Assembly: GCA_963829055.1 (NCBI GenBank)
Contig: CAWHHI010000020.1
Span: 984,695-1,048,694, forward strand
Source: an uncultured Gemmatimonadaceae bacterium
GTDB taxonomy: Bacteria > Gemmatimonadota > Gemmatimonadetes > Gemmatimonadales > Gemmatimonadaceae
Length of the DNA stretch: 64,000 nucleotides
Reading direction: 5' to 3'
Made by a program: the position numbers and the translations under genes. Positions 7,682 to 50,774 of the stretch are shown here, in pieces. Every line of letters starts with the position of its first letter. Positions within the stretch are counted from its first letter, which is position 1. Below the pieces are notes generated by a model that saw only the letters and a list, made by a program, of their open reading frames with translations, was not told where the DNA came from and ran no database searches.

Positions 7682-8104
7682 TTAGGCCCGCCGCAACGCT
7701 GCTAATTCGGCGTCCGTCGGCGGACGCACCTTGAGCACCGTTTCCTTTCTGATCGTGACCGTTCCCGGCTTCGCGCCGCGCGGCTTGGAGACGTGACGTC
7801 CTTCGGTCATTGATACCGGGACGACCCCGCCCGTGCGCGCCTTGCTGTGGTAGGCCGCAATGCCAGCCGCGCGCTCGAGCGTCAGGCGATCCGGTGTGCG
7901 CTCGGCCGGAACGCGAAGCACGACGTGGCCGCCGGGCATGCCGCGGACGTGGAACCAGCGATCGTTCTGGCGCGCGAGCTTGAGGCTGACGTAGTCGTTG
8001 GCAGCGTCGGTCTTACCCGCGAATACGAGCCAGCCGTCGGGGAGCTCGTATTCGAGGATGCCAGCGGGGAGCGACCGGACCGGCGCATCAGGGTCGCTCA
8101 TCAC
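7682..8104 (-). CDS. NFACT RNA-binding (DUF814) domain protein
   Basis: GKTDAANDYVS, DRWFHVRGMPGGHVVL, AAYHSKAR and KPRGAKPGTV motifs. Confidence 0.85.
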   Translation of the reverse strand: MMSDPDAPVRSLPAGILEYELPDGWLVFAGKTDAANDYVSLKLARQNDRWFHVRGMPGGHVVLRVPAERTPDRLTLERAAGIAAYHSKARTGGVVPVSMTEGRHVSKPRGAKPGTVTIRKETVLKVRPPTDAELAALRRA

Positions 8105-9524
8105 CCACTGCTGGCAGCGCCACGCGGAATTCCGTGCGTCCGGGCACCGACTCCACGTCGATCAGCCCGTCGTTCTGATGGACGAGTCGCCTAACGATAT
8201 CCAGCCCCAGCCCTGTCCCCTTCCCGATCGGCTTCGTCGTGAAGAAGGGGTCGAAGATCCGATTCTTCACATCCGCCGGAATGCCCGGCCCGTCATCGAT
8301 GACGCTCACCACAACCTTGTGCCCTTCGGTTCGCGCCGTCACCGTCACTCTGCCGCCCTGGCTCACCGCGTCGAGCGCGTTGTCGACCAGATTCGCCCAC
8401 ACCTGATTCAGCTCACCACCGAACCCGCGCACCCGGGGCAGGTCCGTCGGCAACTTCAGCGTCACGGAGACCGACTTGCCCCGTGCCTTCGCCGCCATCA
8501 CCGCCAGCGTGTCGGTGAGTCCCTTCGCCACGTCCACCGGCTCCGGCGCGGTCGCGTGGTCCATGTACGTGAAGCCCTTCACCGCGCTCACGAGCGCGTG
8601 CACGCGCGACGCCGCCCGCTCGATGTCGCGCGCCAGCCCGCGAACCGTGCACCCCGCGGCCACCCAGCGCAGCGTCGCGCGCAACTTCTCGCCAGTGAGC
8701 GTGCCCGCCAGCTCGTCGAGCAGGTCCAACGTTACGTCCGTCTCGGCCAGCGACGCGGCGAACGTCTCATCCGCCTGGTGGCCCGCCAGCCAGTCGGCGA
8801 TCGACTCCTCGCGGTCCGACCGCTCCAGCGGCGAGAGCACGCTCGTGACCGGCACCGCGAGGCACAGACCGCGTACACGGTCAGTCAGCGCTACTTCGTT
8901 AGGCTCGAGGTGCGCGGCCCCGAGCGCGCGCGATGCCTCTTCGAGCTCGACGAGAGACTCGGACACGAGCTGCGCACTGCGCGCCGCCGCCGACGCGGGG
9001 TTGTTCAGCTCGTGCGCCAGACCAGCGGCGAGCTTTCCGAGCGACGCCATCTTCTCCACCTGCAGGTCGCTCGACTTGAACGCGCGCACGCGGTCGACCA
9101 TCACGTGCACGAGCGCCGCCGTCACGTTCGGACATTCGAAGGGCATTGCCGCCACGTCCGCGCGCGGAACGCAGAGGATCTCGGCCGTCTCGTCGATCAC
9201 CGAGTTCCCCGGCGCCTTCGCCAGGCGCGAGTACGGGAGCTGTCCGGTCACGTCTCCGTCGCGCCAGTCCATCACCTTGCGCCAGGTGCCGCCCGGGTCG
9301 GTGAGATGCGAGAGCCGCCCCTTGAGGATGACGAACAGCGCTTCCACCGGTTCGCCCTTCCGCGCGATCATCTCGCCCGGCTCGAAGGTCCGGACCGTGC
9401 CGTGCGCGACGAGCCACTCCAGCTCCGCGCGCGGCGCGGTCCCGACGGTCCGGTGCGCGGTGAGTCGCGTGAGCAGGTCGGAATCGTCCGTCGCGTTAGG
9501 TGCCTGCGCCAGCGGGTTGGTCAT
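8088..9524 (-). CDS. cNMP-binding domain sensor histidine kinase
   Basis: N-terminal cNMP-like fold; H-box AGLAHELNNP, N-box LNQVWANLVDNA, DDGPG, FDPFFTTK and GTGLGL boxes. Confidence 0.9.
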   Translation of the reverse strand: MTNPLAQAPNATDDSDLLTRLTAHRTVGTAPRAELEWLVAHGTVRTFEPGEMIARKGEPVEALFVILKGRLSHLTDPGGTWRKVMDWRDGDVTGQLPYSRLAKAPGNSVIDETAEILCVPRADVAAMPFECPNVTAALVHVMVDRVRAFKSSDLQVEKMASLGKLAAGLAHELNNPASAAARSAQLVSESLVELEEASRALGAAHLEPNEVALTDRVRGLCLAVPVTSVLSPLERSDREESIADWLAGHQADETFAASLAETDVTLDLLDELAGTLTGEKLRATLRWVAAGCTVRGLARDIERAASRVHALVSAVKGFTYMDHATAPEPVDVAKGLTDTLAVMAAKARGKSVSVTLKLPTDLPRVRGFGGELNQVWANLVDNALDAVSQGGRVTVTARTEGHKVVVSVIDDGPGIPADVKNRIFDPFFTTKPIGKGTGLGLDIVRRLVHQNDGLIDVESVPGRTEFRVALPAVGDERP

Positions 9525-9528
9525 CGGA

Positions 9529-11191
9529 TCACACCGTCTGGAGATACTGGTGGATCATGCTCACAGTCGCCGACCCTTCGCCGACGGCCGCTGCCACGCG
9601 CTTGCCAGAGCCGTAGCGTGCGTCTCCGGCGCAGAAGATTCCCGGCACGTTCGTCTCGAAGAGAAACGGGTCACGCGTGGCCGTCCAGCCGGGCGGGCGT
9701 CGTCCCTCGACCATCACATCGCGGCCCGTGAGGACGAAGCCCTGCTCGTCGCGCATCACGAGGTCTGCACACATGGCCGTACGCGGCGTCATGCCGATGA
9801 AGATGAACATCGCCGTCGCAGTCAACTCCTGCTCCTCGCCGCTCACGGCATTCTTCACCGTCACCGCTTCGAGCCGGCCGTCACCGCGCGCGCCCGCCAC
9901 GCTCGTGTTCAGGAGCACTTCGACGTTAGGCGTCTCGGCGATGCGATCCACGAGGTACCGGGACATGCCGGCCGAGAGGTCGGACCCGCGCACGAGCATC
10001 GTCACCTTGCGCGCGTGGCGGGAGAAGAACATCGCGCCCTGGCCCGCCGAATTCGCCGCGCCGACGATGATCACGTCCTTGCCGCGACACGACGACGCCT
10101 CGGTGAGCGCCGCGCCGTAGTACACGCCCACGCCTAACAACGCCTCGACGCCCGGCGTCTCGAGGCGCCGCACCTCCATGCCCGGCGCGATCAGGACCGC
10201 GTAGCCGTTCAGCTCCGCGCCGTCGGAGAGCATCACCTTCCGATAGGGATCGTCGCGCTTGATCTGCACCGCTTCCTGCGCCGTGATGATCTCGGCGCCG
10301 AAGCGCTTGGCCTGCGTCGCCGCGCGCCGCGCGAGGTCCGAGCCGGTGATGCCGGACGGAAAGCCCAGGTAGTTCTCGATGTTCGAGCTGGTGCCCGCCT
10401 GCCCACCGGGCGCGCTCTGCTCGATGAGGATCGTGCGCAGTCCCTCCGACGCGCCGTACACCGCGGCGGCGAGCCCGGCCGGTCCGCCGCCAACCACGAT
10501 CAGGTCGTAGAACGGCTTCTGCGCGCGCGTCTGCATCCCGAGCTTCTCGGCCAGCTCGCGCGTGGTAGGCTGCACGAGCGTGTCCCCGTCGGGGAAGAAC
10601 ACCAGCGGAAGTCGGGTGACGCCGCCGACCGCGCCCGACAGGAGCTCGCGGACGGTCGCCTCGTCATCCACGTCGAGCCACTGGTACGGCACCTGGTTCG
10701 ACGCCAGGAAGTCCTTCACCGCGAAGCTGGCCGATGAGTACGCGGTGCCCGCCAAACGGATCCCGTCGAACGACGGTCGAGCACGCGCGAACCAGTCCGA
10801 GAGCAGATCGTCGAGCACCGGATAGAGCTTCGAGCTCGGTGGCTCCCACGGCTTGAGGATGTAGTGGTCGAGCCCGATCTGGTTGATCGCGGTGATCGCC
10901 GTCTCCGTGTCGGCGTAGGCGGTGAGCAGCACGCGACGCGCGTCGGGGTAGATCTTGATGGCTTCGGCGAGGAACTGCGTGCCGGTCATCTCCGGCATGC
11001 GTTCGTCCACGAGAAAGAGCGCGACCTGGGCGCCGCGACTGCTTCAACTGGCGCACCGCGTCGAGCGCTTGCGCGCCCGAGGACGCCTTCACGACGCGGT
11101 AGTCGGCGCGATAGTGCGATCGGAGGTCGCGTTCGACGGCGTTCAGGACCTCGGGGTCGTCGTCGACGGTCAATAGGACAGGCTTCGTCAT
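9529..11191 (-). CDS. Response regulator receiver-thioredoxin reductase-like fusion (frameshift near 11040)
   Basis: MTKPVLLTVDDD and DERMPEMTG receiver motifs; GGGPAGLAAA, IENYLGFP, GAANSAGQ and AGD FAD/NAD(P)H motifs. Confidence 0.9.
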
Positions 11192-16873: not shown

Positions 16874-17768
16874 TTACGTGAACAGTTTCTTCGCAATGTC
16901 CTTGAACATCTCCGAATCGATGTCCGGGCCTAACGGCGCCGTGAGCTGCGGCTCCGCGGGGAGATCCGGTGGCGTGAAGCCTTCGGGCGGACCGTCCTGC
17001 ACTTCCAGCGGCTTACCGTCCTCGGGGTGCTTGCCGGTCCAGATCTCGGCGATCTCCTTGTAGTCGTCGGGACTGAAGCGGTAGAGGATGCGGTGCAGGC
17101 CCTTCTCCTCGTGCTTCCGCGCCTCCGGGAATCGCTTGTTGCTGATGTCGGGAATCGGGAGGAGCTTGCCGACGTCGGCGCCGGTCAGCTTCTCGAGCGC
17201 CTTGGCGTAGGCGACGATGTGCACGCCGCCGCGCACGAGCAGGTAGCCGACCATCGCGCGCGACGGTCGTCGTCGCACATCTCGTAGACGCGGATCTTGT
17301 TCGCGCGCGCACCGCACTCGAGGAAGAAGTTGTGCAGCAGGTCGAGCTTGAGGTTGCCGCTGGAGAAGACGTACGTGCCGTTCCAGGGATTCCCCTGCGA
17401 GTCGACCGGCAGCGCCGACTGCCCGCTGGCGATGAAGTGGTAGGTGTTGCGCGCATCGACCGCATCCGCCAGCGGCGTCACCGACGGGTCGGTGCCACGC
17501 TTGGTCGAGCCGGTCAGCAGCAGGTTGATCGCGTACGAGACCGCTTCGATGTGGCGAACTCCTCGGCCGCGATGTTGGCGATCAGGTCGTAGAACGGACG
17601 CATCTGACTTCGCCCGCGGAAGTTGAACGACTGGAACGTGTAGTTCATCAGCGTCGACATCTCGCCGAACTTGCCGCCGAGCAGTTCCTGAACCGCGGCA
17701 GCCGAGTTCGGCGATGCGTGCTTCGGCATTGGGAGGTCGACGGCGAGCTTGTCAAATCGTTGAATCAT
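16874..17768 (-). CDS. Manganese catalase family protein (two frameshifts)
   Basis: QELLGGKFGEMSTLMNYTFQSFNFRG, IAAEE, GNPWNGTYVFSSGNL and RGGVHIVAYAKALE motifs. Confidence 0.9.
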
Positions 17769-18862: not shown

Positions 18863-20878
<2,016 letters not shown>

Positions 20879-20891
20879 CGCTGGCAGCAGG

Positions 20892-23480
20892 TCAGAAGAG
20901 AAACCCCGTCCGGAGGTACAGCCCCGTGCGCTCGGCCCCGTGCGCGATACCGACGGTGACGGTGTTCGTCCGTTTCAGCGGGGCAAGCCAGATCCCGCCG
21001 CCGAACGCCGTGTGCCACTCACTCGAGCTCTCTCCCGTTGCGTAGACGCGACCGGCGTCGGCGAGTCCGAACATCCCGAGCTCGTTAGGAATGAAGAGGA
21101 CGAATCTCGCCAGCGCGAGCCGCAGCTCGGCATTGCCGAAGACGGATGATCGACCCGCGAACCGCTGCTCACTCCAGCCGCGGATTGTCGCGGCCCCGCC
21201 GGCGAACGCGGCCTCATGGAAGGGGACGTCCCCCCACACATGCTCGCCACCGACGCGCAGCGCGAGCGTCGGATCGAGCGGCGCCGGGACGCTCAGGTAT
21301 GTCGCGGCCGTCCCGGACGCCTTACCGAAGGTATGTTCGACATCCCACAGGGCTGGATAGAGTGCCCCGTCGGCAGTGAGCTGAACCCCTCGCACCGCGG
21401 CGACGGGATTGTCCCGCGTGTCGACCGCGAGACGTACCCGGGCGCCGGCCTGGCCGAAGTGCGGAGTGCCGTATGGACGGGTCGTACCAATCAACGTGTT
21501 GCTCGGTAGCTCGGTAGTCGTGTACTGCGCTTCGGCACCGAGAGACAGCGTTAGGTGTGGCCTGACATCGACCGTGTACGCAGGCACGAGGAGATACTGC
21601 GTCTGATGCACGCGGTAGAAATCACTCGGCTCGTCGGATCGGGTTTCGTTGCCCGCCCCGAAAAAGCGAATCACCTCGATCCCCGACGCCCTCGCGGCGA
21701 GCGTCATGTACTGTCGCGAGTTCGGCCGCCGGAACTCGGCAGTCAGCAGCGCGCGGGGTCTGTTCGCCTCGAGTGCGTAGCCCGCCTCCATCGTTATGCG
21801 CGAAGCATAGGGGACGGAACGGAACCCGTACCGGTACAGCGTACGACCGCCGCCCACGAAGAGTCCGACCTCGGGTCCGTAGGTCGTCCACGGAGCGGGA
21901 CGCCATTCGTGGCCCCAATCCCGATGCGGGTCTTGCGGTCGCTTGGCGGGGGGCGCGTCATACGACCGATGATCGACTCGTGCGTCGGACCCCTGCACAC
22001 GACTGGCGCGGCCCGACGCGTCATAGAAGCGGGCCGGCTCGCCGCTGGTACTCGACGAGTCCACGAAGTCGTCGTCGCCGGCGCCGGCGACGATTCGCAC
22101 TGTCACACGCCGCGCGGCGTGTCCTCGTAGCACCACGCGGTCGTTGCCGCCGAAGAGATAGATTCGTACCTCCTTCGTGTCGGTCGGCGCGAAGCGACGG
22201 CGGAAGTACGCTGCTGCGGACGGGCTCTGCTCGGACGCCAGCGGAGAGAGCGAGACCTCCACACCGCCGTCGTCGAGACTGACTACCTCCGCGAGATCGG
22301 GTGCATCGGTTCCACGGACGTCGACCTCGCGGGCGAGGAGTCGGTAGAACTCCGCCGCGGCGGCGGGAAGGTGGTCGCGGCGTGAGACGAGCGTCCGTCG
22401 GAGATGCGCGCCGTTCACCCTAACGAGTGGTGCCGGCATGGCCGCGATGGCATCGTCGATCACCGAGTCGCTGAGCTGCGCTTGCAGTGCCCGCGCGACA
22501 GAGTCCCAGACGGGCCGCTCGAGACCCGTCAGCAGGCGGCGATCGATTTCGCGGCCGTTCCACGTCAGCCCCAGCATGCCCGGATACGCCGCATCGAAGC
22601 TGACGAGCAGAGGATACCACGCCCGCGCGATCGAGAGTAACAGCCCCTCGTGCTTGACGAACGCCATGTCGCGGTCACGCGGGACGGGCTCCCACAGCGC
22701 GTTCGTTTCCGCGCGGAAGTTCGCCCACCGCCACTGGTCGCGATGTCGGTCGCGGTCGCCAACGAACACGTCGAAGAGTCGCGCCGCGAGAAAGGCCGGC
22801 GCGTCGAAGCGCGTCCTGGCGGACTTCCGCAAACGGTCGAACAGATCCTCGGAGCTGATCTCGTCGAGAGCGCCCGGCGAGACCAGCGTTTCGTCGAAGC
22901 CGGGGCCCGGGCGCTCCTCGAAGGTGCCCAGCTGGTTCGCGAAATCGGCGCGGAACTCGCCGAGCAACGGATGGTCCGGGAGCGCCACGAGTCTCGGGTG
23001 TGCGTGGCGAATCCTCGTGGCATCGAGCAATCGCGCGACGACGAGCGCGCTCGCCGGATGGAAGGAGCTCACCTGGTCCTGGAGCACCTGATCGACGAGC
23101 GTCTCGCGCAGGTCGGGCGGCAGCGCGCGTGACGGGTCCTTGTCGAGGGATCGGAAGACGTACGTGTGGCCGTCGGCGCCGTCGAAGCGGAGCGATCTCG
23201 TTTGCAGTCCACCGCCGCGCCGCGTGGGCTTGAGTCCGCCGGCGAACGTGCTCAGGTCGAGCACCTCGAAAGGAATGGGCGTCGCCCAGAGCGCGCGGTA
23301 GTTGGTGCCGAGCATCGCGCGATGCAGTCGCCCAGCAGGGTACCCGGCGCCCGGCGCGGCGACCACGGTGTCCCGCGGCGCGGGCTGTGTGGATGACGTG
23401 CCGGTGGCCGGAACCTGCGCGCGAGCGGCCGCCGCCAGACCCGCCAGCGCGACGGCGGAGAAACGCGTCCTAACGCGCAC
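20892..23480 (-). CDS. Omp85/BamA-TamA family beta-barrel protein with N-terminal kinase-like passenger domain
   Basis: Signal peptide; GGGLQTRSL, GDRDRHRDQW and PRDRDMAF motifs; amphipathic C-terminal strands, DTRDNP, IRGWSEQRFAG loop motif, terminal Phe (TGFLF). Confidence 0.8.
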   Translation of the reverse strand: MRVRTRFSAVALAGLAAAARAQVPATGTSSTQPAPRDTVVAAPGAGYPAGRLHRAMLGTNYRALWATPIPFEVLDLSTFAGGLKPTRRGGGLQTRSLRFDGADGHTYVFRSLDKDPSRALPPDLRETLVDQVLQDQVSSFHPASALVVARLLDATRIRHAHPRLVALPDHPLLGEFRADFANQLGTFEERPGPGFDETLVSPGALDEISSEDLFDRLRKSARTRFDAPAFLAARLFDVFVGDRDRHRDQWRWANFRAETNALWEPVPRDRDMAFVKHEGLLLSIARAWYPLLVSFDAAYPGMLGLTWNGREIDRRLLTGLERPVWDSVARALQAQLSDSVIDDAIAAMPAPLVRVNGAHLRRTLVSRRDHLPAAAAEFYRLLAREVDVRGTDAPDLAEVVSLDDGGVEVSLSPLASEQSPSAAAYFRRRFAPTDTKEVRIYLFGGNDRVVLRGHAARRVTVRIVAGAGDDDFVDSSSTSGEPARFYDASGRASRVQGSDARVDHRSYDAPPAKRPQDPHRDWGHEWRPAPWTTYGPEVGLFVGGGRTLYRYGFRSVPYASRITMEAGYALEANRPRALLTAEFRRPNSRQYMTLAARASGIEVIRFFGAGNETRSDEPSDFYRVHQTQYLLVPAYTVDVRPHLTLSLGAEAQYTTTELPSNTLIGTTRPYGTPHFGQAGARVRLAVDTRDNPVAAVRGVQLTADGALYPALWDVEHTFGKASGTAATYLSVPAPLDPTLALRVGGEHVWGDVPFHEAAFAGGAATIRGWSEQRFAGRSSVFGNAELRLALARFVLFIPNELGMFGLADAGRVYATGESSSEWHTAFGGGIWLAPLKRTNTVTVGIAHGAERTGLYLRTGFLF

Positions 23481-23510
23481 GCCGATATGCGGCGTAGCAG
23501 AGCGACCGGC

Positions 23511-26500
23511 TCATCGGAGCCCGGCCGGCTGGTCGTACGCGGCGGACGAAGGCGCAAGTGCCGTTCGGCCGGTCACGTTAGGCGTGACGGGCCGCTGTGC
23601 GTAGGTCCCGTCCGGCGCGAGCACCCACGCGGTGGGGTCGGCGAGCTCGCGATCGAGGATCCCGTCGAGCCGTGCACGCAGGCGCGGCTCGTGGACCGGC
23701 GCCAGGACCTCGACGCGCCGGCGCAGATTCCTCGGACGCAGATCGGCCGATCCGATGAAGTACTCCGGGTCGCCACCGTTGGCGAAGACCACGACGCGCG
23801 CGTGCTCGAGAAAGCGCCCGAGCAGGCTGACGACGCGGATCCGGTCGGCTGTGCCCGCGGCCCCTGGGCTGAGCGTGCAGATGCCGCGCACGATCAGCTC
23901 GATCTCGACGCCCGCACGGGCGGCGCGGTACAGCGCGCGCACGACGTCGGCATCGGAAAGTCCGTTGAGCTTCATCCGGATCTGCCCCCCGCGCCCCGAG
24001 CGGGCGTGATCCGCCTCCCGCTCGATCCGCTCGATCAAGCCCGGGAGCAGGCCGGCCGGCGCGACGAGGCAGTCGCGATACGGGTGAGCGGCGAGCGCCA
24101 ATGATCCGGTGAGCGCGTTGAACAGATCGTTGACGTCCGCACACAGTGTCTCGCGGGCGGTGAGCAGACCGAAGTCGGTGTACGCGCGCGCGGTCTCAGC
24201 GTTGTAGTTGCCAGTGCCGACGTGGACATAGCGGCGCGGGATGCCGTCCTCTCGACGCACGACCATCGCGACCTTCGCGTGGTTCTTGACGCCCTGCACG
24301 CCGTGGACGACGTGCACGCCGGCCGCCTCGAGGTGCTTCGCCCACGTGACGTTCCGCTCCTCGTCGAAACGCGCTTTCAGCTCGACGAACGCCGTCACGT
24401 CCTTGCCGGCTTTGGCGGCGCGAGCCAGCGCATCGACTATGGGGGACCGCTCCCCTGCCCGGTACAGCGTCACTCTGATTGCCGCCACGTCGGGATCATC
24501 GGCGGCTTCATCGAAGAAGTGCTCGACCGTCGACGAAAAGGCGTCGTAGGGATGGTGGAGCAACACGTCGTGCTCGCGGAGCGTTTCCCAGAGCGGCCGA
24601 CTGACGTCGAGGTGCGCGTTAGGCTGAAACGGCGGGAAGCGAAGCTCGGGGCGCGGCAGTCCGGCGATCTGTCGCAAGGCGCCGGGATCCATGAGCCCAT
24701 CGATCTCGTACACCTCATCCGCGCCGAGCCCGCCGCGTTGCGCTCCCGGCTCGAGCTGCAGCTCATGCAGCAGCCGATCGCGGATGGCGGCCGGCATCGC
24801 GCGCTCGACCTCGACCCGGACAACCGGCTGGTGGCGTCGGCGCTGCGTGCTCTCCGCGATGGCCTGCGCCAGATTGCCCGCGTGCCGCTCGTCCACGTCG
24901 AGGTCGGCGTACCGTGTCACGCGGAACAGGTATGCGTGTTCGACGCGGCGACCAGGATAGAGCGCGTCGAGCTCGTGGCGGATCACGTCCTCCAGCGCGA
25001 CGAAGTCGTCGCTGTCCGGGAGCCTAACGAACCGGGGAACTGCCGCCGGCACGACGAGGTCCCCGATATGACGCGCCGCCCCGGCGTGCGGGCCCCGCGC
25101 CATGACCACCATGCATAACGTGAGATCTGGTATGAGGGGGAACGAGAGCCCCGGCGTCGCGGTGATCGCGCGCGGCGTCAGGTACGGAAAGACGGTGGAC
25201 CGGAAGTAGGTGCGCAGGTAGTCACGCTGCGCCGCGCTCAGCTCACCCGGCGCACGAAGGAAGATTCCCGCCTCAGCGAGAGCCTGTCGGCAGACATCGA
25301 TGCAGCGGTATTGTCGCGCTATCATCGTCCGCACCCGGCGCGAGATCGCCTCGAGCCGAGGCCCCGCCACCTGCCCGCCCGCCTCGGCGGCCACCTCGAG
25401 ACTCCCGTACTTCATGCCGCCCATCCTGACCATGAAGAACTCGTCGAGGTTCGCGTTCACGATCGACAGGTAGCGCACACGCTCCAGCAGTGGAACGGAT
25501 TCACTCTCCGCGAGCGCGAGCACGCGCTCGTTGAACGCGAGTAGACTCAGATCGCCGTCGAGCAACGGTTCTTCCGCGGACACCGCTTCCATCGCTGGGT
25601 CAGTGGCCACCGTGCGGAAGTCCGCGGTGTAGCCAGTCTCGGATTCGCTCCCGGCCGCGGGCGCTTCGGACAGCCCGGCAAGGAGCCCGGACCGATCGAA
25701 CGTCGTCAACGCCGCGACTGTCGGAGGATCCGAAACCAGCGACGAGCCAACTCTCCGCTGCAGGTCGGCTACCGGCATCCACTCGACGTTGGACGTCCGC
25801 TCGGGTCGCGCCGACCTCTCGACGTGCGTCGCGATCCACACCTCGAGCGATTGCCATCGCCCATCGGCGCGGACGGTCGACAGGAGATGCAGGTCCCCGA
25901 CGGCACTCCCGAGCACGTGGCGCATCGAATGGCGGCAGGCGTCTTCGCCGCGTCCCTCGGCGATCGGAAGACGGCGCATGTCGCCATCCACGATGCAGGC
26001 GGCCTGGAGGCCGTCGAGCGCAATGATCACAACCCATTGCCCGGACCCAACCGCCCTGGCCAGCGCTTCGCTCTCGAGCGCCGCACGGAGAAGCGCGCCG
26101 CGCACCGGCCTGTCGGTCGTGATCGTGCGGAGAGCGTAGGCCTCGCGTAGCGCCCGCGACAGTTGTTCGAAGCTCGGTTTCCCCGCGCGCACTTCGCGCA
26201 GCTCGACTTCCTGGAACGTGCGCGCGAGACCCGCCGCCCGCACCGTGACGACGTCGTAGGTCAGCTCGAAGCGCGCCCGCCGCAGCCACCCCGCTGAGAG
26301 CTCGCGCGTATGACGCTCGGTCTCCAGGTCGAGTTGGACGTCCAGCGCCGCGGGGCTCACGAGCCCACGGAGGAGACGAGCCGGTTCGCTCGGCCCCTCA
26401 CACGCCGAGCGCGGCTCATCGGCCACCACCGCGGCTTCCAGCTTCCGGAGCTCGGGACGGCCGTTCACATGAGCGAGCAGAGATACCAGGAGCTCGCAGC

Positions 26501-26696
26501 GTTCATCCGTCCGGAGCCGGAACCGGCACGTCGCGCCCCGTTGTCGTAAGGCGCCGTCAGCGGTGTCGAGGTAGAGATCGCGATGAAAGCGCGGCCCCAC
26601 TGGCTGGCCCTGGAGGCCGAACGGCAGCGGCTCAGCCACCAATCGGCGGAGCGCCGCGGCGGTTGGTACGTCCCAGCAGGCATCAGCTCTGGTCAC
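23511..26696 (-). CDS. ppk1: Polyphosphate kinase 1 with N-terminal CYTH-like extension
   Basis: LSLLAFNERVL, NLDEFFMVR, LLHHPYDAF, ELKARFDEERN, KNHAKV, GTGNYN, RFLEHAR and GSADLRPRNLRRRVE motifs; GTG start overlaps upstream TGA (GTGA at 26693-26696). Confidence 0.92.
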   Translation of the reverse strand: MTRADACWDVPTAAALRRLVAEPLPFGLQGQPVGPRFHRDLYLDTADGALRQRGATCRFRLRTDERCELLVSLLAHVNGRPELRKLEAAVVADEPRSACEGPSEPARLLRGLVSPAALDVQLDLETERHTRELSAGWLRRARFELTYDVVTVRAAGLARTFQEVELREVRAGKPSFEQLSRALREAYALRTITTDRPVRGALLRAALESEALARAVGSGQWVVIIALDGLQAACIVDGDMRRLPIAEGRGEDACRHSMRHVLGSAVGDLHLLSTVRADGRWQSLEVWIATHVERSARPERTSNVEWMPVADLQRRVGSSLVSDPPTVAALTTFDRSGLLAGLSEAPAAGSESETGYTADFRTVATDPAMEAVSAEEPLLDGDLSLLAFNERVLALAESESVPLLERVRYLSIVNANLDEFFMVRMGGMKYGSLEVAAEAGGQVAGPRLEAISRRVRTMIARQYRCIDVCRQALAEAGIFLRAPGELSAAQRDYLRTYFRSTVFPYLTPRAITATPGLSFPLIPDLTLCMVVMARGPHAGAARHIGDLVVPAAVPRFVRLPDSDDFVALEDVIRHELDALYPGRRVEHAYLFRVTRYADLDVDERHAGNLAQAIAESTQRRRHQPVVRVEVERAMPAAIRDRLLHELQLEPGAQRGGLGADEVYEIDGLMDPGALRQIAGLPRPELRFPPFQPNAHLDVSRPLWETLREHDVLLHHPYDAFSSTVEHFFDEAADDPDVAAIRVTLYRAGERSPIVDALARAAKAGKDVTAFVELKARFDEERNVTWAKHLEAAGVHVVHGVQGVKNHAKVAMVVRREDGIPRRYVHVGTGNYNAETARAYTDFGLLTARETLCADVNDLFNALTGSLALAAHPYRDCLVAPAGLLPGLIERIEREADHARSGRGGQIRMKLNGLSDADVVRALYRAARAGVEIELIVRGICTLSPGAAGTADRIRVVSLLGRFLEHARVVVFANGGDPEYFIGSADLRPRNLRRRVEVLAPVHEPRLRARLDGILDRELADPTAWVLAPDGTYAQRPVTPNVTGRTALAPSSAAYDQPAGLR

Positions 26697-27778
26697 AGAA
26701 ACTCGACTCCTACGACGTGCGGGGCGCCGCGCTCGCGGAGCGTGTTGAGGAACCCGGGACGACCATCCTTGCGGAGGCGGATCAGGTAGTCGAGCGTGAA
26801 GCGGCCGTCGTCGGCGGGCATGAGACCGGCGAGCTCCCAACGTTTGGCGCTCTCTCCGAGCACAGCCTCCACGACCGACTGGCTCACTCCAGGGTCCACG
26901 GTGTGGATACGCAGCCTCGTGGTCCGCTGCGATTCCGTGGGCGCCGCGCGATGATCGGCGCTGATGGCGAGTTGCCGGCGCCACGCCCCCGCGGCGCTGG
27001 CGAAGCGCTCGTCGCTGGTCCAGTCGTCACTGCCGTCGGGCGCTGCCCTTGCCGCAGCCGCTGTGCGTGTCCGAATCGGGGCCAGCTTCGGGAGGCGCGC
27101 CAACCGCGCGAGGCCCCCACGGATCCCGGGGGTCGGCGCTCGGGCGAAATCGATCCACCAGAGTCCGAGCACGCAAACGTTGAACACCACCGACGTGGCG
27201 ATTCCGACGACGAGCACGCCGACGGCAGCCGAGATGCCGATCGTGGTCGCGATGAAGATGTAGACGCCGTCCTTCGTGTCGTCGAGCGTGTTCCGAAATC
27301 GCAGCACGGCTACGACGCCCCCGAGGCTGAACGCGAGGGCGAGGCTGTCCTGGATGAGCACGAGCATCCCCGCGATGGCGACGGGCAGCAGGATGAGCGT
27401 GTGCACCATCGATTGCTGAAATCCGCGCTTGCGACGAGTGAGCGAGTACACCCAAGCCAGCGGTAGCGTCGTCGTCAGCGCACCGGCGAGCGCCAGGAGC
27501 GTAAAGGTCAGCAGGCTCCAGCCGCCGAACTGACCCGATTGGAGTGGAGCACGGGCTACGTCGGACCGGGAAAGCGAGCCCGAGAGCTCACCCAGGCGAC
27601 CCGACTCGAGGAGCCCTCTGAGGGAGGGAAACCGGCGCCAGAGCAGGCCGAGCGCGGCAATGAACACCGCGTAGTACGCGATGATCCAGAGCAGTCGCCT
27701 CGCCGCGGCGGAAAGCCGCGGTTCGCTGGCGTCCAATCGTTCGCCGAGGTGCGCGGCTCGCTCTTGCTGCCTGGTCAT
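26693..27778 (-). CDS. DUF4956 domain membrane protein
   Basis: Several hydrophobic helices; LALAFSLGGVVAVLRFRNTLDDTKDGVYIF signature; soluble C-terminal domain. Confidence 0.8.
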   Translation of the reverse strand: MTRQQERAAHLGERLDASEPRLSAAARRLLWIIAYYAVFIAALGLLWRRFPSLRGLLESGRLGELSGSLSRSDVARAPLQSGQFGGWSLLTFTLLALAGALTTTLPLAWVYSLTRRKRGFQQSMVHTLILLPVAIAGMLVLIQDSLALAFSLGGVVAVLRFRNTLDDTKDGVYIFIATTIGISAAVGVLVVGIATSVVFNVCVLGLWWIDFARAPTPGIRGGLARLARLPKLAPIRTRTAAAARAAPDGSDDWTSDERFASAAGAWRRQLAISADHRAAPTESQRTTRLRIHTVDPGVSQSVVEAVLGESAKRWELAGLMPADDGRFTLDYLIRLRKDGRPGFLNTLRERGAPHVVGVEFL

Positions 27779-30566: not shown

Positions 30567-30938
30567 ATGTCTTGTTTTCGCCGCGCGCTCATTGGCGCCC
30601 TGATCCTGATGATGCCGGCGGCGCTCGCGGCGCAGACGCTGACGCCCGGAACGTGGACCGGATCGATTTCGCCACCGTCCGAGCAGAAGCTCGACGTGAC
30701 GTTCGATGTTCGCATGAGCGGCGATACGACGAAGATCACGATGAAGGGTGCCGGCAACGAGCTCGCTTTCGACGACGTCAAGGTGGCGGCGAGTCTTCTC
30801 GTCTTCACGTTCTCACCCGGCGGCGGAGGCACGATCCGCTGCTCGCTGGCGCTTCAGGCCGACAAGAGCTATTCGGGCGACTGCGTCGACCCGCAAGGCG
30901 GGAAGGGCCAGATCGTCATGCGGCCGCCGAAGTCGTAG
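30567..30938 (+). CDS. Small secreted beta-rich protein, paralogue A
   Basis: Signal peptide ending ALAA; GTWTG; two Cys; clear paralogue at 36770. Confidence 0.75.
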   Translation: MSCFRRALIGALILMMPAALAAQTLTPGTWTGSISPPSEQKLDVTFDVRMSGDTTKITMKGAGNELAFDDVKVAASLLVFTFSPGGGGTIRCSLALQADKSYSGDCVDPQGGKGQIVMRPPKS

Positions 30939-30976: not shown

Positions 30977-32158
30977 TCACCGCCCACGCCGTCGTCCTGG
31001 CAGGTCCATTCGCTCGTTTAGAATCTCGGCGTATCGGCTATAGCTGAAGACGCGTCCACGCTGCTTGCGTGTGAGCTCGGTAACGATTCCCAGTCGCTCG
31101 AGTGACGCCAGCGCCTTGTTGATCGTTGCTTGCGCCAGGCCGGTACTCGCGCCGAGCGAGGCGGCCGTCGCGATTGGCTGCCGTTGTAAGTCGCAATGAA
31201 CCACGAGGGCGGAACTGGCGGCACGACCCAACCCTTCGATGCGGCGGCTGTCCGAGGACGCGAGTTCCAGAAGACGCTTGGCGGAGTCGGAGGCCGAGGT
31301 GGCGGTGGCGGCGACCGCGTCGCAGAAGAACTCCAGCCATGCCTCCCAGTCACCCGTTAGGCGGACCTGATTGAGAAGGTCGTAGTAGGTCTGTCGGTGT
31401 TCCTTGAAGTGGAGGCTGAGATAGAGTAGCGGCTCACGGAGAAGCCCATCGGCACACAACTGCATCGTGATGAGTAGGCGGCCAATGCGACCGTTGCCGT
31501 CGAGGAACGGATGAATCGTCTCGAACTGCACGTGGGCAAGCGCGGCCTTGATCAGCGGCGCTGTTGGCTCGGGCTGATCGTGAAGAAAACGTTCGAGATC
31601 CCTGAGACAGTCCTGGACCTCGGTCGCGGGCGGCGGCACGAACACCGCGTTCCCGGGTCTGGTCCCGCCGATCCAGACCTGCGTTCGGCGGAGTTCCCCC
31701 GGCGCCAGACTCGCGCCGCGGCCATGACCAAGCAATACCTTGTGGATCTCGCGTAGGAGTCTCACCGAGAGCGGGAATCCGGCGCGCACTCTTTCGAGTC
31801 CGTGCTCGAGAGCTGCGACGTAAAGGCTCACCTCACGCGCATCGTCAACCGGGACACCGGGCTGTTCGTCGAGCTCGTACAGCATGAGGTCCGCAAGCGA
31901 GGATTGGGTACCCTCGATCATGGAGGAGAGCACCGCCTCTTTCCGCACGAAGCTGTACAACAGCAGGGCAGCGTTAGGTAGCAGGTCGGCGATAGCGTCG
32001 AGCCGCCCGAGCGCGAGAAGCGCTGCGTCGTAACGCCGTCGCAGCGCTGGCGTCCACTGGACGTCCGGACGAGGCGGAAGCGGCGTCGGGACAAAAGCCT
32101 TGAACGGCTCATCCGCAGAGCGGACCTGTAGGTAGCGACCCTGCGGCGTGCAATGCAT
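30977..32158 (-). CDS. Fic family protein with N-terminal inhibitory motif and C-terminal HTH
   Basis: HPFLDGNGRIGR Fic motif; EAVLSSMIEG (S/TxxxEG); C-terminal wHTH-like segment. Confidence 0.93.
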   Translation of the reverse strand: MHCTPQGRYLQVRSADEPFKAFVPTPLPPRPDVQWTPALRRRYDAALLALGRLDAIADLLPNAALLLYSFVRKEAVLSSMIEGTQSSLADLMLYELDEQPGVPVDDAREVSLYVAALEHGLERVRAGFPLSVRLLREIHKVLLGHGRGASLAPGELRRTQVWIGGTRPGNAVFVPPPATEVQDCLRDLERFLHDQPEPTAPLIKAALAHVQFETIHPFLDGNGRIGRLLITMQLCADGLLREPLLYLSLHFKEHRQTYYDLLNQVRLTGDWEAWLEFFCDAVAATATSASDSAKRLLELASSDSRRIEGLGRAASSALVVHCDLQRQPIATAASLGASTGLAQATINKALASLERLGIVTELTRKQRGRVFSYSRYAEILNERMDLPGRRRGR

Positions 32159-36769: not shown

Positions 36770-37138
36770 ATGCACTCCCTGCATCGACTACTCATCGGCG
36801 CGCTCATTCTCGCGATGCCGGCCTCGCTGGCGGCGCAGAAGCTGACCCCCGGCACCTGGACCGGGACGATGTCCCCTCCGGGGAACCAGACGATGGACAT
36901 GGCCTTCGACGTTCGTGTGAGCGGTGACACGACGAAGATCACGATGAAGGGCGGCGGCCTCGAGATGGAGGTCACCGGCGTCAAGGTCGAGGCCAACCGA
37001 CTCCTGTTCACGTTTACGCCCGGCGATGCAACGGTCCAGTGCACGTTGCTGCTTCGCGATGACAAGAGCTACTCGGGAGATTGCGTCGATCTCCAGGGCG
37101 CCAAGGGCGTGATCGTCATGAAGCCACCGAAGGCGTAG
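36770..37138 (+). CDS. Small secreted beta-rich protein, paralogue B
   Basis: Aligns over its whole length with 30567..30938. Confidence 0.75.
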   Translation: MHSLHRLLIGALILAMPASLAAQKLTPGTWTGTMSPPGNQTMDMAFDVRVSGDTTKITMKGGGLEMEVTGVKVEANRLLFTFTPGDATVQCTLLLRDDKSYSGDCVDLQGAKGVIVMKPPKA

Positions 37139-48956: not shown

Positions 48957-50774
48957 GTGGAACAGGTTCTCTCCCGTCAGCAAGCCGAGCTCGTTGCGCT
49001 CGAGCGCCGTCTCGTCCTCCGAGCGCGCGACGCCCTCCTTCAGGTCGAGGGCTCGCGCGACGACGTCGACCGCCTCGCGAAGCTCGTCGGCGAGATGGAC
49101 GAGCTCTTTCTGCTCGTCATCGCCGGCGAGTACAACACCGGCAAGAGCACGTTCATCAACGCCTTGCTCGGCGATGAAGTGTTCGCCATGGGCGACCTGC
49201 CCACCACGCGCGAGATCGCCATTCTGCGCTACGGCAACGTCGGGCCGCCGGAGGCGATAGGAGACCACACGCTGCTCTTCCACTACCCGCTCGATGTGCT
49301 TCGCGATCTCGAGATCGTCGACACGCCGGGCACGAACTCCATCGAGCGGATGGAGGAGGAGATCACGCGCGGGTTCGTGCCGCGCGCCGACCTCGTGCTC
49401 TTCGTCACGAGCCTGCTGCAGCCGCTCACGGCGAGCGAGATGGGATTCCTCTCGCACATCCGCGAGTGGGGGAAGAAGGTCATCTTCATCGTCAACGGCG
49501 TCGATCGGCGGAACTCCGACGAACAGGTCGACCGCGTGCGCGCGTACCTCGAGCGCGAGATCAGCACGCGACTCGGCGGCGCTGCCCCGAGCACGTACTT
49601 CATCAGCGCGCTACGGGCGCTGCGCGCGAAGATGGCCGCGCGCTCCGCGCCGTCGTCGGACGGGGCGTCCGCTGCCCCGGTCGTGCCGGCCATGCCGGCC
49701 GTGCCGGACCCGCGCGACGAGTTCCCCGCGCTCGAGCGCTATCTCCTCGAGACGCTGCGCGAGCACGAGCGCGTTCGCCTCAAGCTGCTCTCGCCGTTAG
49801 GCGTGCTCCGACACGTGCTCGACCGGAACGTCGGGGCGCTCGACACCCGGCTCGAGGTCGTGCACGCCGACGGCCGCGTGCTGGGCGTCGTGCGCGAGCA
49901 GCTCTCGAGCTATGGGGCCGAGATGCGGACGGATTCCGAGCGGTACCTGCTCGAGGTGCGCAGCGTGCTCGGCGAGATCGAGCGCCGTGGTCGCAGCTGG
50001 CTCGAGCGCACGATTCGCGTCGGCAACCTGAACTTCCTGCGCAACAAGGACGCGGTGGAGAATCGATTCCGGGCCGAAGTCGTCGCCGACGCGTCGCGGG
50101 AGATCGAGGACGTCGTGAATCGCATGGTAGACTGGACGGTGAAGCGGAACCTCAAGCTCTGGACGGCCGTGTTCCAGGAGCTCGACGCGCACACCGCTCG
50201 GCTCCGCGCGTCGGGAGCGCTGGCCGCGCACGCGAGCACCGAGTTCCAGTACAATCGCGAGGATCTGTTCGATCGGCTTCGCCAACCCGTCGAGCGCCGG
50301 CTCAGCGAGTTCAATGCTGAAGCCGAAGCGCGCGCGGTCATGGACTCCGTACGTGAGGCGGTCACGCACGCGTTCGGGATCAACGTGCTCGCGGTTGGAC
50401 TCGGCGCCGTGGTGATGGCGATCTTCACGACCGCTGCGCTCGACATCACCGGCTTGCTGACGGCGACGCTGTTCGCTGTCGCCGGCTGGCTTCTCATCCC
50501 CGCGCGGCGGAAGCGCCTGATTCGCGAGCTCGAGGCAAAGATCGCGATGCTCAGCACCGATCTTTCGGCGCTGCTCGCGACCAAGTTCAACGAGCAGTTG
50601 AAGCGGTATGAGCAGGAACTGCTCGACGTGATCCAGCCGTACGAGCGCTTCCTCGCGACGGAGCGCGAGAAGTTGGAACGCGGGCTGTCCGAGCTGCGCG
50701 GGGCGCAGCAGGACACGACGACGCTCGAGCGGCGGGTGACAGAGACGTTCCCGGAGCCCGCCCGCGCGCCGTGA
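48957..50774 (+). CDS. Bacterial dynamin-like GTPase
   Basis: G1 GEYNTGKS, G2 PTT, G3 DTPG, G4-like NGVD; helical stalk and hydrophobic hairpin near the C-terminus. Confidence 0.88.
   Translation: MEQVLSRQQAELVALERRLVLRARDALLQVEGSRDDVDRLAKLVGEMDELFLLVIAGEYNTGKSTFINALLGDEVFAMGDLPTTREIAILRYGNVGPPEAIGDHTLLFHYPLDVLRDLEIVDTPGTNSIERMEEEITRGFVPRADLVLFVTSLLQPLTASEMGFLSHIREWGKKVIFIVNGVDRRNSDEQVDRVRAYLEREISTRLGGAAPSTYFISALRALRAKMAARSAPSSDGASAAPVVPAMPAVPDPRDEFPALERYLLETLREHERVRLKLLSPLGVLRHVLDRNVGALDTRLEVVHADGRVLGVVREQLSSYGAEMRTDSERYLLEVRSVLGEIERRGRSWLERTIRVGNLNFLRNKDAVENRFRAEVVADASREIEDVVNRMVDWTVKRNLKLWTAVFQELDAHTARLRASGALAAHASTEFQYNREDLFDRLRQPVERRLSEFNAEAEARAVMDSVREAVTHAFGINVLAVGLGAVVMAIFTTAALDITGLLTATLFAVAGWLLIPARRKRLIRELEAKIAMLSTDLSALLATKFNEQLKRYEQELLDVIQPYERFLATEREKLERGLSELRGAQQDTTTLERRVTETFPEPARAP

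Follow-up and report, generated by a model that had tools for sequence, protein, structure and literature searches.

A 64,000-nucleotide stretch of the genome of an uncultured Gemmatimonadaceae bacterium (contig CAWHHI010000020.1, positions 984,695 to 1,048,694; hereafter the window) carries three co-directional genes that encode a DUF4956 inner-membrane protein, a polyphosphate kinase of the PPK1 type with a long N-terminal extension, and an Omp85 outer-membrane barrel to which a kinase fold is joined. This locus is a Gram-negative variant of the cotH/VTC/DUF4956 gene trio, in which PPK1 replaces the VTC-type polyphosphate polymerase, and the three genes form a conserved set that could serve to provide the cell envelope with phosphate chemistry. 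It is very probable that the three proteins act together in one way or another. The more specific reading favoured here, to which a probability of roughly 0.4 is given, is that they constitute a trans-envelope phosphate-transfer module in which a periplasmic kinase is supplied with polyphosphate (polyP) at DUF4956 or by passage through it.

The three genes, their linkage and their fusions

All three genes lie on the minus strand. The DUF4956 gene (26693..27778; 361 aa; Pfam PF16316) is followed by ppk1 (23511..26696; 1061 aa; Pfam and NCBIfam), the GTG start of which, at 26696, shares a GTGA with the TGA stop of the DUF4956 gene; together with the upstream GGAG at 26710-26707 this junction occupies 26693..26710, and its sequence indicates that the two genes are probably translationally coupled. 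The kinase-Omp85 gene (20892..23480; 862 aa; PF01103, E-value 1e-9) starts 30 nt past the ppk1 stop. Direction, overlap and gap had been given in a preliminary description of this DNA and are confirmed by the gene coordinates and Pfam matches. The reading frames look intact, since a protein collection includes entries that match all three products in length, homologues there bearing names that point to Gemmatimonadaceae, with the caveat that paralogous loci of the same assembly contain frameshifts. A sigma-70 promoter search at the locus gave no match, and a terminator search gave 9 matches against 4.3 in shuffled sequences (standard deviation 2.6), which is not clearly higher. One soil RNA run matched 6% of the words and yielded contigs on the DUF4956 gene and across the DUF4956/ppk1 junction; these contigs are proof of neither expression nor co-transcription.

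Linkage was examined at 40 of the 58 non-self matches to the extended enzyme (hereafter CYTH-PPK1, after its N-terminal domain), drawn from 37 genomes with longer contigs preferred. DUF4956 is present at 30 of these loci (co-directional at 28), a kinase-Omp85 gene at 16 and a gene for a soluble CotH-like protein with a signal peptide at 14, and the full triad stands in one direction at 14. At least one partner occurs at 37 of the 40 loci, as against none of 20 ordinary ppk1 loci, a control from which three loci with an ordinary ppk1 adjoining the module (L024, L078, and L082) were left out, and which becomes 3/23 if they are counted. The neighbourhood conservation on which the preliminary description had staked its proposal is thus borne out across genomes. 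The arrangement is more than chance, because the gene order of the window recurs in a genome of the same genus (L196) and the co-directional triad recurs as stated. Each gene also occurs independently of the other two, and their order is not constant, as would be expected of chance neighbours with independent functions; that explanation is largely refuted by the control and by nine covalent fusions, to which are added the overlapping or tightly spaced genes seen in many orders, and its probability is now extremely low.

The two kinase types were never found together at the 40 CYTH-PPK1 loci, and among 40 further, hand-picked DUF4956 loci a soluble kinase occurs at 22, a barrel-bound kinase at 10, and both at none. 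DUF4956 with a kinase (32/40 of these loci) is the commonest unit, often without a dedicated polyP synthase. A wider survey covered 301 genomes of the phylum, which are kin rather than independent, so that its counts are descriptive; they are counts among the matches listed (37 matches of one search fall outside these), and that for CYTH-PPK1 drops 10 weak matches in open reading frames of about 500-750 aa. One of the 301 genomes (G013), flagged as unpublished, enters the counts as a non-match only. On this basis CYTH-PPK1 is encoded by 51 genomes, DUF4956 by 132, VTC by 16, and the soluble kinase by 97. DUF4956 was found in 45 of the 51 genomes with CYTH-PPK1 as compared with 87 of the 250 without it, in all 16 genomes with VTC, and in 89 of the 97 with the soluble CotH-like kinase. 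Classic loci with VTC and a short DUF4956 gene also exist in the phylum; of two such loci (L089:3188-10156 and L081:2166-4823), one has a Pfam CotH gene and the other has genes for a 926-aa beta-helix protein and a metallophosphoesterase. At several loci the gene that follows CYTH-PPK1 in the same direction encodes a protein that is about 205 aa long, looks secreted and bears a CREP.YRW motif (L013:4764-5369, L016:3946-4563, L018:9111-9734, and L027:6258-6878), for which no Pfam match was found in the three copies scanned.

In nine genomes the membrane part of DUF4956 is fused in frame to the PPK1 core. All nine fusions lack both the ACT-like tail of DUF4956 and the CYTH-NUDIX extension of PPK1 that are described below, and all nine retain a basic RFRxxLxDTKD loop. 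Because the fusions lose the two parts jointly, we infer that tail and extension dock with each other and that fusion removes the need for them; this joint loss would be the strongest sign that DUF4956 and PPK1 are physically coupled, lending indirect support to the docking suggested in the preliminary description. In a quick tree of PPK1 sequences, from which fragments shorter than 550 aa were excluded, three fusions came out as a single clade within CYTH-PPK1 and separate from the six housekeeping enzymes included (the label ‘house’ on L042 belongs to a frameshifted CYTH-PPK1). Five fusion genomes were tested for kinases, and all five encode both types elsewhere; at L202 a soluble kinase gene stands directly upstream of the fusion. 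Most fusions (L084-L086 and L198-L202) converge on a second ppk1, which at L085 and L086 lies within a ppx-ppk1-sixA-CHAD cluster.

Domain anatomy of the three proteins

The DUF4956 protein scores 36.8 bits against a PF16316 cut-off of 30.6, and all 32 homologues gathered by genome searches match that family. About six membrane helices are predicted from hydropathy between residues 24 and 209, and a fold search with an AlphaFold monomer model (predicted template modelling score 0.49) marks residues 281-361 as an ACT-like domain, which aligns with ACT-like folds including the C-terminal domains of MgtC (Z 8.8, 82 residues, root-mean-square deviation 2.4) at a score that ties with generic ACT/S6 folds. 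Fold searches with this model, by which the membrane part was barely probed, returned ACT-like matches only, and membrane structures of VTC and MgtC were not among them. Five residues (R115, R162, D167, K169, and D170) are invariant in the 32 homologues and lie at the predicted cytoplasmic ends of helices. When the DUF4956 tail (residues 210-361) was paired with the 350-aa CYTH-NUDIX region, complex prediction gave a score of 0.01, a value that speaks neither for nor against docking; controls were not folded.

The ppk1 product has a PPK1 core preceded by a 370-residue N-terminal extension. Four PPK1 Pfam domains exceed their cut-offs, TIGR03705 scores 683 against 466 bits, and the motifs HHPY, KARFDE, TGNYN, RFLEHAR, and SAD..RN are all present, of which HHPY and RFLEH are the catalytic histidine motifs of PPK1; the enzyme is predicted to make polyP from ATP. 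The extension begins with a CYTH/TTM tunnel domain (residues ~8-200; 26097..26675, minus strand), which matches PF01928 under the cut-off (residues 27-183, E-value 2e-4) and whose profile is nearest to the Escherichia coli inorganic triphosphatase 5a60 (E-value 7.5e-6). In an alignment of 38 sequences the basic residues R39, R53, R60, R128, and R131 are retained, and the N-terminal ExExK, the metal motif of CYTH domains, is not conserved, the alignment beginning at about residue 8 and covering the first strand in part. The domain is probably a binding or docking module rather than a catalytic one. It is followed by a degenerate NUDIX-like domain (residues ~205-340; 25677..26084, minus strand) with a weak profile match to ADP-ribose pyrophosphatase (E-value 0.07), a degenerate Nudix box and, as a lead only, an ESM Atlas assignment to NUDIX clusters (0.89); homologues of 914-919 aa, such as the short forms at L045 and L050, do not have it. 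The CYTH-PPK1 architecture given in the preliminary description thus stands, with a weak CYTH match, and to it is added a NUDIX-like domain that had been missed and is itself weakly matched. At L049:7936-10062 and G300:C75, DUF4956 is adjoined by a CYTH-NUDIX protein some 670-710 aa long in which the PPK1-like region is only partial.

The genome also encodes the separate housekeeping ppk1 that had been proposed as a check, on contig C12 among pst, phoU, ppx, and pit genes; its product is 47% identical to that of the window. An ordinary ppk1 accompanies CYTH-PPK1 in 14 of the 17 genomes tested, and is present in all 17 tested genomes that have DUF4956 without CYTH-PPK1. The VTC domain (PF09359) was found neither in the genes of the locus nor elsewhere in the source genome, which is 86% complete.

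The kinase-Omp85 protein comprises a Sec-type signal peptide (judged by eye from the sequence), a CotH/PI4K-like kinase fold, a beta-rich linker, and an Omp85 barrel ending in Phe. The kinase domain (residues 36-385; 22326..23375, minus strand), which forms the passenger of the barrel, was modelled from 139 sequences with a predicted local distance difference test score of 93. Its nearest solved structures are CotH (5jda; Z 15.1, root-mean-square deviation 4.1, 251 residues aligned) and, in a tie with it, PI4KII-alpha (Z 14.6), followed by CtkA (Z 14.0), and Foldseek concurs at an E-value of about 1e-5. Recognizable motifs include a GGxQT loop, R110, K114, D135, E188, D244-R245-H246-x-D-Q249, and D269-R-D271; K114, R234, R245, D269, and D271 are invariant in all 139 sequences, and D244 is found in 137. 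The model is that of a two-lobed atypical kinase fold with a catalytic-loop Asp and a metal-binding Asp, in line with the kinase-like passenger of the preliminary description, and kinase activity may be expected from it. Pfam CotH (PF08757) gave no match for the passenger or for the seven soluble partners scanned, one of which falls, by the Atlas (0.95), into a cluster in which PF08757 makes up 17%, and sequence searches of solved structures gave no kinase for either the passenger or a soluble partner. A profile comparison of the barrel-bound and soluble kinase families was not significant (E-value 0.13), though the two motifs were paired.

The barrel itself exceeds the PF01103 cut-off, carries IRGW at residue 766 and the terminal Phe, and gives BamA matches; a loop-6 motif of the RG(F/Y) type occurs in 101 of 117 full-length homologues. 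No Pfam match to POTRA was found in the protein, its linker is modelled as all-beta, and TIGR03303 scored 18 against 297 bits. Because POTRA is unmatched and PlpD provides a precedent for a periplasmic passenger (PMC11116518), the kinase domain is, by analogy, more likely to be periplasmic than exposed at the surface; the preliminary description had proposed surface glycans, lipids or proteins as its substrates. The family numbers 2752 representatives at 50% identity and includes phosphoesterase-kinase-Omp85 fusions (e.g., P0214, with PF00149), PF00149 being absent from the protein of the window.

Proposed polyphosphate delivery and its alternatives

Under the polyP-delivery reading, a dedicated PPK1 would sit on the cytoplasmic side of DUF4956, secured either by docking of CYTH-NUDIX on the ACT-like tail or by covalent fusion, and would make polyP from ATP beside the conserved basic residues of DUF4956. 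DUF4956, probably as an oligomer, might then pass the polymer to the periplasm in the manner of the VTC membrane part, where a CotH-fold kinase, soluble or on the periplasmic side of the Omp85 barrel, would take the delivered phosphoryl donor and modify an envelope substrate, which could be a protein, a glycan, or a lipid. The metallophosphoesterase and beta-propeller proteins found at some loci could provide a reverse or trimming step, and in genomes without a dedicated synthase the housekeeping PPK1 may stand in. This reading is favoured because two unrelated polyP synthases, VTC and PPK1, occupy the same slot beside DUF4956 and PPK2 is almost never there, because the fusion copies the architecture of VTC and keeps the basic loop, and because an exported kinase needs a donor. 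The periplasm lacks ATP. Published work on yeast VTC describes basic rings in the cytoplasmic vestibule, which the basic residues at the helix ends of DUF4956 fit (10.1101/2023.01.27.525886).

Several observations weigh against it. In Streptococcus intermedius, deletion of either the DUF4956 gene or cotH lowers aggregation by more than 50%, with no such effect reported for the VTC gene in the available part of that account, which also describes opposite shifts in Pel upon deletion of DUF4956 and cotH and likens the architecture of DUF4956 to that of MgtC, a regulator (PMC12345266). Among the matches listed, CYTH-PPK1, VTC, and the fusion are all missing from 66 of the 132 genomes with DUF4956, and 6 of the 51 genomes with CYTH-PPK1 have no DUF4956 match; six loci join a soluble CotH-like gene directly to CYTH-PPK1 without DUF4956, and in 3 of the 17 genomes tested the CYTH fusion is the sole type of ppk1. 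At the 32 kinase-Omp85 loci outside Gemmatimonadota (from a sample of 79 loci from named genomes), DUF4956 occurs at none and ppk1 at 4. The glycine-rich loop and hinge-like residues of the passenger would, moreover, suggest nucleotide binding.

The main rival is trans-envelope signalling without polymer export, in which a periplasmic kinase fold and its phosphatase partners would sense or modify an envelope ligand, and DUF4956, as an MgtC-like regulator, would switch a docked PPK1 or Hanks-type kinase through its ACT-like tail. DUF4956 does share with MgtC/SapB a membrane core followed by an ACT-like C-terminal domain, as is stated for the streptococcal homologue, and the reported streptococcal phenotypes track DUF4956 and cotH rather than VTC (PMC12345266). 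The likeness in sequence profile is nevertheless marginal (probability 2.4%, E-value 0.019), the MgtC profile matching 3 of the 32 DUF4956 members at E-values of 0.29 or worse, and the source genome encodes a separate MgtC gene. The predominance of the DUF4956-kinase pair noted above, at loci and in genomes alike, would suit signalling, as would Hanks kinase genes inserted between DUF4956 and CYTH-PPK1 (L014, L015, L019, L020, L023, L030, and L031), which encode proteins of about 810 aa with tetratricopeptide repeats at six loci and of 338 aa at L030. Hanks-type kinases occur at 24 of the 40 CYTH-PPK1 loci, yet they are abundant anyway, with 108 matches to the profile in the source genome, and the convergent Hanks-type Ser/Thr kinase gene of the window (18863..20878, plus strand; Pfam Pkinase), which ends 13 nt from the Omp85 stop, is possibly a mere neighbour.

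Loci of other phyla also bear on signalling. A Pfam scan of 72 of the 125 neighbours, from 27 kinase-Omp85 loci outside Gemmatimonadota, found a PycTM membrane protein at 8 (7 with an HD domain) and a class III cyclase at 7. In Ignavibacteria, Chlorobi, and Bacteroidota, kinase-Omp85 genes stand near PycTM, mostly with HD, class III cyclases, SixA-like phosphatases, and ppk1 (L127, L132, L133, L137, L147, L160, L165, and L167), and outside the phylum the position of DUF4956 may be taken by HD-PycTM. Against signalling, the fusions dispense with the ACT-like tail, which is the part most obviously suited to regulation, and the kinase is left without a phosphoryl donor; the explanation is considered unlikely.

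A different source of the donor is offered by the possibility that DUF4956 exports ATP, or exchanges it for ADP, on behalf of an ATP-using periplasmic kinase, with the docked PPK1 running in reverse to regenerate ATP from polyP. The PPK1 reaction is reversible, motifs resembling a nucleotide site are conserved in the kinase, its fold neighbours (CotH, PI4K, HipA, and Fam20) are ATP kinases, and loci without a synthase would be accounted for. PPK2, however, is the usual regenerator of ATP and adjoins these genes at only 1 of 173 loci, and the VTC that occupies the same slot is described as making polyP from ATP, so that an ATP conduit appears quite improbable.

Phosphate might instead flow inward. 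The barrel would let in polyP or organophosphates, from which the propeller and periplasmic phosphoesterases would free phosphate for DUF4956 to import or sense and for PPK1 to store. A metallophosphoesterase is encoded at 9 and an SdiA-regulated/phytase-like propeller at 8 of the 40 CYTH-PPK1 loci, outside the phylum the propeller occurs at 16 and the phosphoesterase at 6 of the 32 kinase-Omp85 loci, and the natural phosphoesterase-kinase-Omp85 fusions point the same way. Neither hydrolase, however, is encoded at the locus of the window, scavenging has no need of a conserved kinase active site, and Pst and Pit uptake genes sit with the other ppk1; we regard it, too, as quite improbable.

Known relatives, genomic surroundings and significance

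The nearest described system is the set of cotH, VTC-domain polyphosphate polymerase, and DUF4956 genes, known as accessory genes of Gram-positive pel loci (PMC7112168; PMC12345266). In both, a single operon encodes a DUF4956 protein that has an ACT-like tail, an enzyme that synthesizes polyP, and an exported kinase of the CotH fold; the locus of the window is assigned to this set by function class rather than orthology, PPK1 standing for VTC and kinase-Omp85 for CotH. It differs in that the synthase is a PPK1, extended by CYTH-NUDIX or fused to DUF4956, and in that the kinase forms one protein with an Omp85 barrel in a host with an outer membrane. The preliminary view of a DUF4956/VTC/CotH variant therefore holds, with PPK1 in the place of VTC. 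In the published survey, so far as its available text goes, the trio was not found outside pel loci (PMC12345266), whereas an equivalent set is common in Gemmatimonadota, pel genes not having been searched for here. The likeness to eukaryotic VTC is looser: there too a polyP synthase is coupled to a membrane portion whose cytoplasmic side bears basic residues, a layout mirrored by the DUF4956-PPK1 fusion (10.1101/2023.01.27.525886), but the enzyme family is another, DUF202 has no match in the source genome, and any likeness of DUF4956 to the VTC helices or to a pore is one of analogy.

At the level of single proteins, the window PPK1 has the full domain set and motifs of ordinary PPK1 and differs in its N-terminal extension, while its CYTH domain resembles that of the E. 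coli YgiF-type triphosphatase; the window protein has no CHAD domain, and its CYTH domain is probably not catalytic. With CotH (PF08757; 5jda) and the PI4KII/HipA/Fam20 group the passenger shares its fold, the DRH..Q and DxD motif pair, and export, but it is only about 10% identical, has no Pfam CotH match, and is anchored to a barrel that, without a POTRA match, is not that of a BamA or TamA. The combination of an Omp85 barrel with an enzyme passenger also characterizes the ‘Metallo’ subfamily of Heinz and Lithgow (2014), to which the relatives that unite PF00149, this kinase domain, and the barrel correspond; the passenger is termed a metalloprotease there, the word ‘kinase’ being absent from the main text in so far as it is available, and the window protein differs in having the kinase domain alone (PMC4104836). 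In its way of working the locus has its nearest counterpart in the trio and a more distant one in eukaryotic VTC, and it contains neither VTC nor Pfam CotH nor BamA. The claim of an undescribed system holds for the PPK1/Omp85 variant and its mechanism and fails for the parent trio, which is in print (PMC7112168; PMC12345266); in the open-access literature listings searched, no account was found of CYTH-PPK1, of the DUF4956-PPK1 fusion, of the PPK1 substitution, or of an Omp85-borne kinase fold.

The source genome has three DUF4956 loci and three kinase-Omp85 loci in varied combinations. Its paralogous loci encode DUF4956, a propeller, and kinase-Omp85 (L008:7012-11633, C6), DUF4956 with a soluble CotH-like protein (L009:8102-10353, C8), and kinase-Omp85 with a metallophosphoesterase (L010:6770-10626, C5); several of their genes, and a ppk2 copy on C12, are split by frameshifts that are likely to be assembly indels. 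Elsewhere in the window there are a manganese catalase in two pieces, probably frameshifted (16874-17768, minus strand), a response regulator/thioredoxin-reductase fusion beside a cNMP-binding histidine kinase (8088-10998, minus strand), a Fic-domain gene (30977-32158, minus strand) flanked by similar genes for small secreted proteins (30567-30938 and 36770-37138), and a dynamin-like GTPase of 605 aa (48957-50774, plus strand).

To our knowledge, it is an open question where exported bacterial kinases obtain their phosphoryl donor and by which route polyP exits the cytoplasm of bacteria; the module makes both testable, as the single-chain DUF4956-PPK1 fusion is a natural construct for a transport assay and the confidently modelled kinase domain suits an assay of ATP versus polyP. 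The trio, reported only at Gram-positive pel loci (PMC12345266), is extended to a phylum in which DUF4956 is found in 132 of 301 genomes among the matches listed, and a kinase fold is placed in an Omp85 family of 2752 representatives that had been filed in print as a metalloprotease group (PMC4104836). It is a tentative and somewhat unlikely generalization that DUF4956 is a prokaryotic polyP-conducting channel fed by VTC or PPK1, and that extracytoplasmic CotH-fold kinases, including the Omp85 passenger, use polyP rather than ATP; if true, it would provide a general phosphorylation route in the ATP-free bacterial envelope.

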